Source: an uncultured Verrucomicrobiae bacterium
Lineage (GTDB): Bacteria > Verrucomicrobiota > Verrucomicrobiia > Limisphaerales > UBA11358
NCBI GenBank assembly: GCA_963762585.1
Contig: CAVXLF010000023.1
Span: 85,035-149,034, forward strand
Direction of reading: 5' to 3'
DNA: 64,000 nt
The notes under the pieces were generated by a model. That model ran no database searches, had not been told where the DNA came from, and saw only the letters and a program-made list of their open reading frames with translations. Within the stretch, counting starts at the first letter, position 1, and each line of letters starts with the position of its first letter. The translations under genes and the position numbers were made by a program. Positions 45,492-49,874 of the stretch are shown here, in pieces.

Positions 45492-48400
45492 CTACTTCCA
45501 CTCGCACAGGCTTTCGACGTGAGCGGCGGAGCCGTCGCGCAGCCAGCCATCGAGGTGCGATTGCTCCTTGAGCTGTTGTCCGCGGAAACGCGGCACGGCG
45601 ATGAACTGGCAGTTGATTTCCGGCAGCGCAGTCATGTCGGTCCACAATTTTTCAAATTGTGCCACCGGGAAAATATCCTCCTGCCCGTGACCCCAGCGTT
45701 TTTTCACGTCCTTGAGGGTGACATAAGTCGGCAATTTTAACGCCAGCGCACGCACGGCTTCGGTCACCTTGTTCGCGTCGGCCAGATCGGCGCGGGTGAG
45801 TTGAAATGCCGCGAGCAGTTTCTCCACGTCAATCCAGCACGTGTTGGAATTGTAGTAGGACAACGCAAATTCGTCCTCTTCGCGCGGCATGGCCAGGCCT
45901 TCGACGATGCGCGTCTTGCCGTTCACGCGCGCGAGGCCGCCGCCGCGATCTTCAATCCGCCGCGTGATGACTTCAAACGAAAGACCGCCGCCGAGTTTCA
46001 GGTGCAGGCCGAGCGTGGCCGGGTCAACGTTCGCGCCCACGGTGTCAATGTTGTGCAGCAGGAGATGCTTCAACTGCGGGCGCTCTTTCAGCATCCGGTC
46101 CAGCGTGCCGTTGCGGAGCAGGTTGGGAATTTCAAACCAGTGGCCGACCGGATGCAGGCATTGCAACGGCACGTTGTCGGTGTAATCGCCGCCTTCACCG
46201 GCCTGTTTGGCCCACTCGATGAGCGCGTGCCGCAGGCTGTCGCGGACTTTTTGCGCCTGTTCATCGAGAATTTGCTGCGGCAATTCCTCCCACATGAACC
46301 GCAAATCGCGTTCCATCGGAATCAGGCGCAGGCCGACCGAGCGGCCTTCGGATAAAAACAACGGGCCGTCGTAGCCGTAAAACTTTTCGCGCGCGAGAAA
46401 ATCCTCGGTCGGCTGGTGCGAAACATAACTGGTCGTGATGACATGCGGCAGAGGATTGCCGGCCAGTTTTCCGATGTGCCGGCTTTTGGCCAGGTGCACT
46501 TCGAGGAACGTGCGGTGCCGCCCGCCGAGTTTGCAGAAGGGATGCAGGGCCTTGACGGTGCCGGCGCCCTGCGTCCAACGGCTGCCCGCGCCGGCGGCCA
46601 GCGTCACGACGGCCACTTCACCCGCTTTCAATGCGGCCAGCCCGGCCTTGTAATATTCCTTTGGCAAATCATGCGTGGCATCGAACACGTCCCCGTCGGT
46701 CACGTCCTGGATTTGCGTGCTGATGGGCAGGCGATTTTGCGCCAGGCCGATGCGGCCGCCTTTGAGGTCGGCGCGGATTTGTTCGTGTTGCGTGCGGTCA
46801 AAGCCGTAGCGCTCCAGCAAGGCGGGCAGCGAGGTTTCGCCGCCGGCGTCGGTTTTCAGGCGCGGCAGCAGGCGGTCGAACAACGTTTGCACCATGCCGC
46901 GCAATTCAGGCTGGGTGCGGCAGGCGGCGCCGAATTTGTCCAGCTCCGTCCGGCGCAACGGCGGCAGTTTGTAGGCGTCCTGGCGGAGCAATTGCGGCAT
47001 GACCAGCGCGTAATAACCTTGCGGCAACAATGCCGAGGGGCCGTTAAGCAAATCCGCCCAGGTGCCCTTTTCGTTGATGGCGAAATCGTACACGACCGGT
47101 TCCATGGCGAAGGGCAGGGCGTGTTCGAGTTCGCCTTTGGTTTGTGACATGATTTCCTGCAGGCGCAGCTGGCCTTTGGCCTTGTGTGCGGGATTGAAAA
47201 TGAAACCCATGCCGCCGCCGGACATGCCGCCGAGCATCCAGAAGCCGAGGAAGTTTTTGCCGAACTCGCCCTGCACGCGCTGGATGAGGGTTTCGGTGAA
47301 AAGGTTGGTGGCCCAGGGAATGATGGTTTGAATCGGGCCGGAGAAATTCCGGGTGGTGGCGCCGCCCAACGCCGCCACGTCTTCGCGGCGCAGCGCGGAA
47401 AGAATTTCATCCAGAATGCCCAGCATGCTCAACCGCGCCTGCCACTCGGCGCCGGAGCGCAGCAAATATTTTTCCGTCACCATTTCCAGAATGGGTCCGA
47501 CGTTCTGGGCCATGCCGCCATGGACGAGCACGAGGCTGTCCTGCAGTTTCTGGCGCGCCGCGGGCGAAGCTTCGGTGGCGTCCAGGATGCGATGTTGCGG
47601 CATCAATCGTCCGCGGCTGATGCCGGCTTCGGGATCGCCTTCCGCGGCCAGCACGCCTTCGATCAGCTTGATGCCGGGCCAGACGCCGCCCGAATCCTGC
47701 CAGCCGCCGCCGGAGCCGCCGAGCCATTCGCCCAGAATCGCGCGCGCCAGCACCAGCCGGCGTTCGTCCTCCTGCAATGCGCCGTGCAACGAGGTCGCCT
47801 GGCCGGTCGCCCGCATGCACAGCGAAATCATCGAGGCGAGCAGGTTGGTGGACACCGCGAGGCGCGAACCTTTCGGTATTCCATTAACGCAACTGACCAG
47901 TTCGAGGCCGCGTCCGGGGCCGACGACGCAGGCGAGCAGGTCGGCCAGGCTCTGGCCGGAACCTTCAACGCCCGGCGGCACGATGCCGCTGGCAATGATG
48001 GCGGCTTTGAGCAGGCCAAGATAATCCTTCGCGAAGTCAAATACGTCGGCGAGGCTGGTGATGTCCGCGGTGGCGCCGAGATCCACACTGGTCAGGCGCA
48101 ACAACGGCTCGTCAATCACGCGCAGGTAGGTTTCCACCGGCGGCTGCGCGATGGGGTCGCGGCCATGCACGCCCAGGTCAATCGAAATGTTCAGGACCTT
48201 GGCGCCTTCGGGATAATCCATGCCGAGGAAGAAAATATCGCTCCAGCCGCAGTGCGTGAGGTCCATGCGCACCGGCGTGAGTTCCCGGAGGATCGGATAG
48301 GTGCCGTCCTTGCCGGGGCGCAACAGTTCGCGGCGGAGGCGGAGCGGGTGGTCGGCGGGATGGCCCATGCGGAACATCCATTGGTTGCCGCGCACGGACC

Positions 48401-48812
48401 GCACGCTGCTGCGCACCTGGTTGGCGAGCGTTTGAATCGCCAGCCGGTAATACGTCACGGCCAGGGCGCTGGAAATGGGATCGGACGGGCCGTCATGGTT
48501 TTGCAGCTTGAGAAAAGCGGCAATGGCTTCCTCAAAACGTCGTTCCAGCAGATGCGTGTAACCGTGGAAGGGAATCAAATTGCGCGTGCCGACGCCCGGC
48601 TTGAGCGGCAGATGAAACCGGTGAATGGCGTACAGGAACAGCAACGCCCGGACACGTTCGTAAAGATTTTCGCTCCGGCGGCGGAACGCCTCCAGTTCGG
48701 CGCATTCCGCGAGCAACTCCGGCAACGCGGCCGCGCGGCAGAAGGCATCGAGGGATTGATTGCGCACCGCCGGGTCGGGCGAGGTGATGATTTGAACGAG
48801 TTTGCCGGGCAT
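45492..48812 (-). CDS. Large fusion protein: unknown N-terminal region + GHMP/fucokinase-like domain + UDPGP-family (UTP-sugar-1-P uridylyltransferase) domain
   Basis: 1106 aa. GHMP-like: [16 protein letters not shown] (Gly-poor motif 2), [18 protein letters not shown] (GGxQDQ-type), [13 protein letters not shown] (motif 3). UDPGP-like: [28 protein letters not shown]. Confidence 0.65.
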
Positions 48813-48841
48813 GGCTTAAACGTGGAGAGGCTGCGATGGAA

Positions 48842-48935
48842 AACATCCAACATCCAACATCCAACATCCAATTCCCAATGCCGGCGGTGCAGGCATCATT
48901 GGATGTTCGGCGTTCGATGTTGGATGTTGGATGTT
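48842..48935. repeat. Inverted pair of heptamer arrays (AACATCC xN ... GGATGTT xN)
   Basis: AACATCC x4 perfect plus 2 degenerate (48842-48883); GGATGTT-type x5, 3 perfect (48901-48935); the arms are reverse complements. Confidence 0.85.
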
Positions 48936-48959
48936 CACTTGGCGGTAGGAAACCGTTCC

Positions 48960-49874
48960 TCACGTTTGCGCCAGCAGTTCGACGAGCAGCGTGAGGACCT
49001 CGTCCCGGTCTTTGCCGTTCAGCGCCAGCGCCAGTTGCGCCGTGAGCAGGCCGTATTGAACGCCGATGTCGTAACGGCGGCCCTGCAATTCGCACGCGAG
49101 ATAGCGTTCGCTTTCGGCCACCCTGGCCAGGGCATCGGCAAGATGCACGCCGCCGGTGTTGCCCGCAGCCGTCACGAGTTGTTGCAGAATGTCCATCACG
49201 CCGGACGTCAAAACATGCATGCCGAAAAAACACAGGTAATGGCCGGCGCGCAGGCCGGGCACGATGAGTTTTTGTTCGGCCACCGTCGGCGTGGGTTTTT
49301 CCACGACGCGATCCACCTGATACAAACCGGCCCGGCCCGGCAGCCGCCGCGCGCCCACCGCGCCGTAGTAGGGCAGCTTGCTTTCGTGTGTGGGTTGCAC
49401 CGCGGAAACCGCGCAGGCTTCGGCGGAGGCCAGCTCCAGCAATTGCCGGGCGCAGGAATTTTTATTTTTGCTGACGTACAGGTGGTCGCCCACCAAAAGC
49501 ATGAACGATTCGTCGCCGGTAAAGTTCCGCGCACAGGCCACGGCATGGCCGTAGCCCAACGGCGCGGGTTGCTCGATGAATTGGACGCGATTGGCGTGCG
49601 GCCCGGCGGCGGCGGCAAAGGCGCCCTCGTCACCGGGGGAAATCACCAGCCCGATTTCCTCAATGCCGGCCTGCAACACCTCCTCGAGCAGGATGGTGAG
49701 GGCCGATTTGGACTGGCCGTCGCGGTCCATCAACGATTGCAACGGCAGGTTTCGCTGATTGCGACCGGCGGCGGTAATGACAGCTTTGCGGATTTTCACG
49801 GCTGGACGCCCGGCGGGGCAGGTGGTGTTTTCTTCATGACTGGCAAAACGCGAGCATAAGGGCCGCGCGGCCAT
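48960..49874 (-). CDS. GalU-like sugar-1-phosphate nucleotidyltransferase with degenerate N-terminal motif
   Basis: [18 protein letters not shown] (in place of GalU-type AAGLGTRFLP), [12 protein letters not shown]. Start is ATG 49874 or GTG 49799. Confidence 0.65.

Follow-up and report, generated by a model that had tools for sequence, protein, structure and literature searches.

What does a two-gene locus encode when both of its products keep the fold of sugar-nucleotide enzymes and each carries a rebuilt phosphate loop? The question is raised by two open reading frames (ORFs) on contig CAVXLF010000023.1 of an uncultured Verrucomicrobiae bacterium, both read from the minus strand of the 64,000-nt stretch that was analysed (the window). 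One gene (45492..48812, ATG start) encodes a 1106-residue fusion protein composed of a helical domain, a fucokinase-type GHMP domain, a helical linker and a UDPGP core, whereas the other (48960..49874) encodes a GalU-like nucleotidyltransferase partner as a 304-residue ORF with an ATG start. On the reading that we favour, and to which we give an even chance, the fusion protein would be a bifunctional anomeric sugar kinase/UDP-sugar pyrophosphorylase, and the partner a second nucleotidyltransferase or a GalF-like modulator. An initial annotation of the DNA had placed a two-gene locus here and quoted motifs from it; both ORFs and all of the strings are present in the translations, with strings of 11, 18, 13, 12 and 14 residues at positions 313–323, 365–382, 527–539, 735–746 and 917–930 of the fusion protein, and a ten-residue string at positions 35–44 of the 304-residue ORF. 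Both ORFs are genuine genes and not chance reading frames, since protein searches return at least 8000 database homologs for each at E <= 0.001, the top 120 of each matching over the full length at E = 0 and 75–94% identity. Near-identical proteins carry the source names Limisphaerales, Pedosphaera and Verrucomicrobiota. Most of the 120 listed partner homologs are 276–279 residues long, and when the window ORF is aligned with 49 partner ORFs from related loci, 30 of the 50 rows have Met and 19 have Val at codon 26 of the ORF; the true start is thus probably the GTG of this codon, at 49799, giving a conserved protein of 279 residues. The GC content is ∼60%, and the cassette sits amid housekeeping genes (gyrA, gyrB, recQ, gcvP and enolase).

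Architecture of the fusion protein and its active sites

The AlphaFold2 model of the fusion protein, built on a 104-sequence alignment spanning 30–94% identity, has a predicted local distance difference test score (pLDDT) of 90.4 and a predicted template modelling score of 0.90; an earlier model from a shallow alignment (41 sequences, at least 75% identity) reached a pLDDT of 57 and was discarded. Residues ∼173–592 (47037..48296, minus strand) form a two-lobed GHMP kinase domain of fucokinase type. In the NCBIfam scan the single match of the chain is to the kinase half of PRK13412 (residues 179–558 against model positions 614–951, E 7e-22), at 77 bits and so below the curated cut-off of 721, and phmmer against PDB sequences aligns residues 178–387 to the kinase of Bacteroides Fkp (9iip/5yys) with E 6e-11. 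The structural comparison agrees, since full-length Fkp is the top Foldseek match in the PDB (E 2e-20), with a template modelling score (TM, target-normalised) of 0.82 and E 2.9e-19 for the isolated fucokinase 9iip, and a TM of 0.83 for the heptokinase WcbL (4usm). The GHMP/fucokinase-like core of the initial annotation is therefore borne out, and at the level of fold and catalytic residues the domain belongs to the GHMP superfamily, within the fucokinase type represented by COG2605 and the kinase half of PRK13412.

The segment before the kinase had been described as an unassigned N-terminus of ∼300 residues; it is in fact ∼170 residues long, with GHMP homology starting at residue ∼178. This domain (residues 1–∼172; 48297..48812, minus strand) is all-helical, with helices H4–H148 at pLDDT 85–97, and has no Pfam or NCBIfam match. 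In Fkp, a helical linker subdomain packs on the kinase (PMC11982464). The N-terminal domain is probably the counterpart of that subdomain in the model, because the Foldseek alignment extends to 574 columns with full-length Fkp versus 439 with the kinase part alone, and because distant homologs always align residues 3–598 (the helical and GHMP parts) in one stretch.

The active site of Fkp offers a detailed point of reference. There, R592 stabilises the transition state, W599, D601, T602 and Q761 contact the sugar, the Gly-rich loop 712–720 places S719 and S720 at the metal, and D762 acts as the general base (PMC11982464). Those that mutants or structures show to be needed for catalysis or sugar binding are R592, W599, D601, S719, S720, E751, G759, Q761 and D762; the W599A and D601A substitutions lower kcat/Km more than 3000-fold, and E751A and D762A are inactive (PMC11982464). 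In the residue alignment these positions fall, in the same order, on R182, W190, D192, S321, T322, E362, G370, Q372 and D373 of the fusion protein. The mapped positions are identical save at two sites, namely T602, which becomes I193, and the loop 712–720, in which S720 reads T322. The catalytic and sugar-site residues of Fkp are accompanied by a Gly-rich motif III (G528-G-M-S-G-G-G534). The Fkp pocket takes sugars of the L-fucose configuration and tolerates variation at C5 (PMC11982464); the sugar site of the fusion protein resembles it in W190, D192, Q372 and D373 and differs at I193.

The departure from Fkp is concentrated in motif II (P313-K-G-S-R317-L-A-V-S-T-N323; 47844..47876, minus strand), where the residue alignment pairs AGSGLGTSS of Fkp (712–720) with KGSRLAVST (314–322), such that G715 is replaced by R317, G717 by Ala and T718 by V320. 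Relative to the canonical pattern P-x-x-x-G-L-x-S-S-A, R317 takes the place of the signature Gly and V320 that of the first Ser, with P313, L318, S321 and T322 kept. Across the 104-sequence alignment, R182, D192, S321, T322, E362, G368–D373 and G532/G534 are invariant, and W190, K314 and R317 are at least 90% conserved, R317 being found across members at 47–94% identity to the window protein. A far clade at 30–34% identity (Omnitrophota and others) carries GSGLAVST, with the Gly kept and the Trp absent, and one of its members, P0281, matches Pfam GHMP_kinases_N (PF00288). Since R317 is conserved at this level and the far clade keeps Gly, the alignments indicate that the Arg loop is a derived, fixed trait of the main clade and not a product of decay. 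Catalysis by the GHMP domain is favoured by the survival of the base, the Arg, the Glu and the metal-site Ser/Thr, residues that an inactive domain would be expected to lose.

Beyond a helical linker (residues ∼593–712; 46677..47036, minus strand), delimited by secondary structure and pLDDT and containing the sole low-confidence loop of the model (650–657), the chain ends in a UDPGP-family, UGPase-like nucleotidyltransferase core (residues ∼713–1106; 45495..46676, minus strand). UDPGP (PF01704) is the only Pfam match in the fusion protein, at 37.6 bits versus a gathering threshold of 22 (residues 888–1003). PDB sequence alignments pair residues 880–1000 with fungal and human UGPases (7ppr, 8c0b, 4r7p) and residues 701–815 with UAP1 (4bma), and Foldseek superposes the core on UAP1/AGX and UGPase structures with E 1e-16 to 1e-14 and TM(target) 0.56–0.63, so that the UDPGP domain of the initial annotation is sustained by sequence and structure alike. 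The hallmark motifs of the family, the nucleotide-binding loop G-x-G-(S/T)-R/x...K, P-x-G-H, N-x-D-x-x-G-A, D-x-(K/R)-G-G and N-(T/S)-N, are all present. Alignments to 7ppr and 4r7p show a conserved nucleotide loop, G741-A-G-S-R745 ... K754, followed by a conserved TTS...H segment, P-V-G890-H891, N921-I-D923-T-V-G-A, E947 and D955-R-G-G-G and, towards the C-terminus, by Y-N988-S-N, K1034-x-V-K-K1038 (K1037/K1038), Q-F-E1054-K and a ten-residue segment ending at residue 1082. This core is thus a member of the UDPGP family by fold and catalytic residues. Judged from the alignments and from general knowledge of the families, the combination of GH, NxDxxGA and DxRGGxL appears nearer to UGPase than to UAP.

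The ∼400 C-terminal residues therefore share with UGPase, USP and UAP1/AGX (PF01704) the passing Pfam score, the superposition on UAP and UGP structures and the motifs GxG(S/T)R...K, PxGH, NxDxxGA, DxRGGxL and (F/Y)N(T/S)N, but differ from them in several respects. A conserved helical insert of ∼45 residues (∼834–871) is extra relative to eukaryotic UGPases, whereas their C-terminal left-handed beta-helix/dimerisation domain is absent from both sequence and model: the chain stops ∼30 residues past the VPR-x-R...K motif that closes the core, with only two short helices there. In addition, the core lies behind a 700-residue kinase module and is bacterial and widespread. The curated UGP, USP and UAP equivalog models gave no match to the fusion protein.

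The nearest known relative of the whole arrangement is Fkp of Bacteroides fragilis (PDB 5YYS, 9IIP, 9IIT), which likewise joins an anomeric GHMP sugar kinase and a sugar-1-phosphate nucleotidyltransferase in one chain. Its kinase domain is the closest relative in sequence and structure (E 6e-11, TM 0.82), and the catalytic Arg, Asp and Glu, the sugar-stacking Trp, motif III and the helical subdomain before the kinase are common to both. In contrast, Fkp begins with a PF07959 GDP-fucose pyrophosphorylase bearing a beta-helix, whereas the window protein is kinase-first with the pyrophosphorylase C-terminal, an order correctly recognised as reversed in the initial annotation, and has a UDPGP core, an Arg-for-Gly loop and a separate GalU-like partner. 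Neither PF07959 nor NTP_transferase is matched by the 1106-residue protein in Pfam. By cut-offs, domain content and defining loops, the protein is neither an Fkp nor a UGPase equivalog. UDPGP enzymes and pyrophosphorylases of the Fkp/GalU type belong to separate families within one broad nucleotidyltransferase fold class, and the earlier description of a pyrophosphorylase fold different from that of Fkp accordingly goes too far. The plant FKGP and the Leishmania arabino/fucokinase-pyrophosphorylases are related to Fkp.

An in-frame insertion of ∼260 residues follows residue ∼712 in close relatives that are 79–86% identical to the window protein (P0046, P0049, P0050, P0056, P0070, P0071, P0077 and P0078), and locus L090:4001-8101 carries one at about 6137-6923. 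The insert is a complete RayT/IS200-like Y1 transposase domain (RRRLPHW..GATYFVTFR, MPNHVHVLV, YIxENPxKA) with Ala/Pro/Gly-rich linkers on either side, and the reading frame runs through it uninterrupted in eight separate clusters of 90% identity. The impression is of an enzyme that tolerates, or has domesticated, a transposase domain in one of its surface loops.

The GalU-like partner, gene linkage and distribution

The partner has an NTP_transferase fold (Pfam E 7e-12), and its best PDB match is Bacillus subtilis YngB (7o2n, E 2e-27). Its uridine/sugar-phosphate side is kept, with Q102-x4-G107-Y-G109-H110-A, G-D130-H, V-E192-K193-P194 and Y268-D269-I-G, among which Q102, G107 and D130 are invariant in the 50-row alignment. 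The phosphate side is rebuilt. The canonical loop that holds the beta and gamma phosphates of UTP (G-x-G-T-R-x-L-P-A-T-K...P-K-E-M-L-P) is replaced by a 17-residue variant, and alignment to YngB places a ten-residue segment (49743..49772, minus strand) at the position of AAGLGTRFLP in GalU; over the longer span, AAGLGTRFLPATKAxPKEMLP gives way to 19 residues, the ATKAxPKEMLP segment being replaced and three residues shorter. Among the 49 partner ORFs this region follows the consensus K-A-V-I-T-A-A-G-[RK]-x-Q-R-x-L-P-L-Q-T-L-x-D-R-D-G, in which Q40, P44, D50, D52 and G53 are invariant. The loops of both proteins had been called degenerate in the initial annotation. This description does not hold, as GSRLAVST occurs in at least 90% of the 104 fusion-protein members with the other catalytic residues kept, and the partner consensus recurs throughout its 49 ORFs; both loops are strictly conserved variants on which selection acts. 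The partner loop thus reads, in these alignments, as a conserved alternative motif; the idea that the partner is a decaying pseudo-enzyme was discarded on the same grounds.

By cut-offs and by the defining loop, the partner is neither a GalU nor a GalF, scoring 106 bits versus a cut-off of 327 for TIGR01099 (GalU) and 35 versus 659 for TIGR01105 (GalF). It resembles these proteins in fold, in its best matches (GalU and YngB) and in the retained Q-x4-G-x-G-H-A, G-D, E-K-P and Y-D-x-G elements, and its GxGTR loop differs from that of GalU, as does the loop of GalF. Its loop is nevertheless not the variant of GalF, and it is set apart further by genetic coupling to the fusion enzyme.

To follow this coupling across genomes, a collection with one genome per species was scanned, giving at least 599 pattern matches, of which at least 566 encode a confirmed relative; the two-gene cassette is found across hundreds of soil and water bacteria. 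Neighbourhoods and linkage were counted in the best 80 loci of these relatives. They come from metagenome-assembled genomes labelled in the majority Verrucomicrobiota, followed by Chloroflexota/Anaerolineae (14) and Planctomycetota of Phycisphaerae type (5), with the remaining labels being Armatimonadota, Lentisphaerota, Acidobacteriota and Moduliflexus. In 70 of the 80 loci, spread over several phyla, the gene directly upstream of the fusion gene and co-directional with it is the GalU-like one; of the other ten, five have too little upstream sequence and five have different genes at this place. The two genes are usually 10–30 nt apart in related loci, and in two metagenome loci of a clade at 57–61% identity (L083 and L084) the partner stop and the fusion start overlap or lie 3 nt apart. 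Adjacency and co-direction in 70 of 80 loci, together with these overlapping or closely spaced ends, support a functional link between the two genes, as had been suggested from the window itself.

No other conserved neighbour emerged from all-against-all clustering of 848 ORFs from the 80 loci, in which only the cassette genes and their antisense shadows recur. An MFS transporter near the cassette is confined to the nearest relatives, and recurrent dapA, dapB, folK and Gfo/Idh/MocA neighbours look like lineage synteny.

The sequences cluster by phylum label, with a mean identity of ∼68% between phyla versus 72% within Verrucomicrobiota. Four contigs inside the Verrucomicrobiota cluster carry other labels, namely Limnocylindrales, Haliangiales, Proteobacteria and Sulfopaludibacter (loci L002, L009, L034 and L071); their copies are 70–92% identical to the window protein, with L002 and L071 at 92%. 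These are probably binning errors, and phylum counts taken from the labels of assembled genomes need caution.

The motifs, Arg loop included, are shared by further clades at 47–50% identity, which come from Nitrospirota, Coatesbacteria and other Planctomycetota. In two Nitrospirota loci (L081:8001-13312 and L088:7001-13019) the fusion gene is followed on the same strand by genes for a DUF362 protein and a UbiE-type S-adenosylmethionine methyltransferase, and L088 adds a SuhB-like inositol monophosphatase downstream; a DUF362 gene is also found near the Coatesbacteria copy (L087). In one Planctomycetota-type clade, a tightly coupled 262-residue ORF without a Pfam match ends 1 nt before the fusion gene (L085:6211-6999). 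It may be a different dedicated partner; a diverged GalU-like protein was ruled out (BLASTP E 6).

When 1.84 billion cluster representatives were searched exhaustively, 694 matched below 1e-30 and only a handful of these were full-length clusters at 50% identity; the family is hence compact and highly constrained. Its reach extends to eukaryotes. One full-fusion homolog, P0276 (KAK2962578.1), is from the oxymonad Blattamonas nauphoetae, and two metagenomic homologs with low-complexity inserts (P0245 and P0346) look eukaryotic; these proteins are 41–53% identical, have the Arg loop and suggest transfer between bacteria and anaerobic protists. Two giant proteins of the far clade, P0264 (2318 residues) and P0282 (2939 residues), fuse the GHMP–UDPGP unit to ROK (glucokinase-like) domains, and P0264 is fused in addition to a domain of the inositol-monophosphatase/FBPase superfamily. 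A possible pathway clue lies in these fusions, which would unite a sugar 6-kinase and a phosphatase with a C1-kinase and a pyrophosphorylase.

The family currently goes under the NCBI label ‘UTP--glucose-1-phosphate uridylyltransferase’ or as ‘hypothetical protein’, whereas the JGI label, ‘UDP-N-acetylglucosamine pyrophosphorylase/galactokinase/mevalonate kinase-like predicted kinase’, takes note of both halves. Full-text literature searches found no description of a GHMP–UDPGP fusion, and a 2025 paper on FKP phylogeny makes no mention of UDP fusions (PMC12732313). With both folds recovered by hidden Markov model and structure searches, and with no curated model reaching its cut-off and no paper found on the fusion, neither of the outcomes that would have overturned the initial annotation (absence of the folds, or a match to an already characterised family) was observed.

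Proposed function and competing explanations

On the reading proposed at the outset, the two genes would constitute a self-contained nucleotide-sugar module. The GHMP domain would take a pyranose sugar and phosphorylate its anomeric hydroxyl, as in Fkp; by homology, D373 would serve as the base, R182 and the loops of motifs II and III would stabilise the transferred phosphate, and S321/T322 would hold the metal. The tethered UGPase-type UDPGP domain would then join the sugar-1-phosphate to UTP, which we infer to be the nucleotide, yielding UDP-sugar and pyrophosphate. The overall scheme would follow the logic of Fkp, except that the domains come in the opposite order and the pyrophosphorylase is of UDP and not of GDP type. 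As its uridine/sugar side is kept and its triphosphate/pyrophosphate loop is rebuilt, the presumably co-translated GalU-like protein would either be a further nucleotidyltransferase whose chemistry on the phosphate side has changed or modulate the large enzyme as a GalF-like subunit, and the two proteins might also interact physically.

Kinase–pyrophosphorylase fusions have precedents in Fkp (PMC11982464) and in a zebrafish glucuronokinase/putative pyrophosphorylase (PMC3938481). In the zebrafish protein and in the plant glucuronokinase/USP salvage route, a GHMP sugar-1-kinase likewise feeds a UDP-sugar pyrophosphorylase step (PMC3938481); the zebrafish protein, however, has the Fkp-like order with an NTP-transferase-type N-terminal domain, and the likeness drawn here is one of logic.

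Several observations weigh against the proposal. Because the signature Gly of motif II is Arg and the Ser that follows is Val, ATP binding of canonical style is not assured, and neither Pfam GHMP_kinases_N nor GHMP_kinases_C matches the window protein. The neighbourhood of the cassette gives no clue to the sugar substrate in any of the 80 loci. At the four places examined in the Nitrospirota, Coatesbacteria and Planctomycetota-type clades, no GalU-like gene adjoins the fusion gene, and Omnitrophota likewise carry the fusion without the partner. Finally, autotrophic Nitrospirota carry the fusion, and its cross-phylum identity of ∼68% comes close to the 72% within Verrucomicrobiota; both suit a core biosynthetic role better than scavenging. 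The suggestion of sugar salvage made in the initial annotation is for this reason questionable, and salvage is less certain than a core UDP-sugar route, given the Nitrospirota copies and a conservation that resembles that of housekeeping genes.

The changes in motif II and the silence of the two Pfam models also invite an explanation without kinase activity, which we regard as unlikely but the most serious of the alternatives. The fusion would then be a UGPase (a pyrophosphorylase for UDP-glucose or a UDP-hexose), its GHMP-like half a pseudokinase that binds a sugar or sugar phosphate and regulates or scaffolds the C-terminal catalytic domain, and the partner a GalF-like regulatory subunit. 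The UDPGP core is indeed most like UGPase in its GH, NxDxxGA, DxRGGxL and YNSN motifs, housekeeping-like conservation would suit the main UDP-glucose source of these phyla, and the NTP loop of the partner is non-canonical, as in GalF. The family-wide invariance of D373, R182, S321/T322, E362 and motif III is, however, hard to explain without catalysis. Moreover, as the far clade keeps the Gly (GSGLAVST) and one of its members matches GHMP_kinases_N, the ancestor was by this evidence a kinase, and the Arg form evolved under constraint and not by decay.

A second alternative, which we hold to be improbable, retains the kinase and changes its substrate. In the manner of the heptose-7-phosphate kinases HddA and WcbL, the GHMP domain would phosphorylate C1 of a phosphorylated or acidic sugar, with K314 and R317 binding the distal anion; a phosphatase would trim the resulting bisphosphate, and the UDPGP domain would activate the sugar-1-phosphate, which would make this an NDP-heptose-style route for a different sugar. 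The NDP-heptose pathway (HddA/WcbL, the GmhB phosphatase and HddC) similarly runs from a GHMP C1-kinase to a nucleotidyltransferase. WcbL is as good a structural match as Fkp (TM 0.83 versus 0.82), the phosphate loop has gained K314 and R317, both nearly invariant, the far-clade fusions P0264 and P0282 would supply the upstream kinase (ROK) and the trimming phosphatase, and an Inositol_P gene stands two genes downstream in one Nitrospirota locus. Sequence similarity, in contrast, is to fucokinase only, with no match to HddA or WcbL, and the heptose nucleotidyltransferase is of another family. The loop of the proteins fused to ROK and phosphatase domains contains Gly in place of Arg, the window cassette has no conserved phosphatase gene beside it, and the Nitrospirota Inositol_P looks like an ordinary SuhB (268 bits versus a cut-off of 332) and may be a chance neighbour.

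Least probable is a role of the two proteins outside nucleotide-sugar synthesis, for example as a nucleotidyltransferase–kinase pair in defence or signalling for which the family assignments mislead, as although all sequence models score far under their equivalog cut-offs, the context is variable and the locus bears traces of mobile elements (an intergenic hairpin, and the RayT insertion in relatives), the PADLOC defence-system models gave no match, the gene lies amid housekeeping genes, the copies cluster by phylum and not in the patchy, island-like pattern of defence genes, and both enzyme families keep their sugar- and uridine-binding residues.

Returning to the bifunctional kinase/pyrophosphorylase, a stronger form of the proposal may be stated, which we consider a long shot. 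The Arg-for-Gly loop (residues 313–323) would mark a GHMP clade with changed phosphoryl chemistry, either C1 phosphorylation of a phosphorylated or acidic sugar or use of a donor other than ATP, and the fusion with its partner would be the main, unrecognised UDP-sugar route in Verrucomicrobiota, Planctomycetota, Chloroflexota and Nitrospirota and not a side salvage. C1 phosphorylation of such a sugar would amount to a hexose version of the heptose bisphosphate route that bypasses phosphoglucomutase-type steps, whereas for a non-ATP donor the candidate is pyrophosphate from the UDPGP domain of the enzyme itself.

What is new at this locus is an uncharacterised and very widespread kinase–pyrophosphorylase fusion that has a dedicated partner and in which a non-canonical phosphate loop has become fixed. 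Its hosts are Verrucomicrobiota, Planctomycetota, Chloroflexota, Nitrospirota and Omnitrophota, phyla about whose envelope and polysaccharide metabolism little is known. An enzyme that converts sugar to UDP-sugar in one chain would add a missing step to the metabolic models of these hosts and would provide a new catalyst for chemo-enzymatic synthesis of UDP-sugars, as Fkp does on the GDP side. The Arg loop of the GHMP domain and the rebuilt GalU loop are, in addition, test cases for the rewiring of phosphate-binding loops with the rest of the active site kept.

Intergenic hairpin and neighbouring reading frames

The 147-nt gap between the two genes (48813..48959) contains a hairpin built of heptamers (GGATGTT/AACATCC) and followed by UUUUCC (48841..48936, minus strand). 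The hairpin is nearly perfect, with a minimum free energy of –63.4 kcal/mol as RNA and a z-score of –6.4. Its pattern occurs once in the 64-kb window and in none of 84 related loci, and it is a lineage-specific insertion that may be REP-like (repetitive extragenic palindrome) or an attenuator/terminator. A riboswitch search of positions 45000–53500 (Rfam, E <= 1) gave just weak miRNA-like matches on the hairpin, which reflect its shape, and a scan for promoters and terminators did no better than shuffled sequence.

An 891-residue ORF runs antisense to both cassette genes (47184..49859, plus strand). Related loci repeatedly contain antisense frames of this kind, and the ORF is in all likelihood a shadow of GC-rich coding sequence and not a gene. 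Upstream of the cassette, a 166-residue ORF (49931..50431, minus strand) has no family match and is present only in the nearest relatives. Further along the window are a gene for a DUF7544 protein (52335..53312, minus strand) and a 503-residue ORF (55353..56864, plus strand) that has no Pfam or NCBIfam match.

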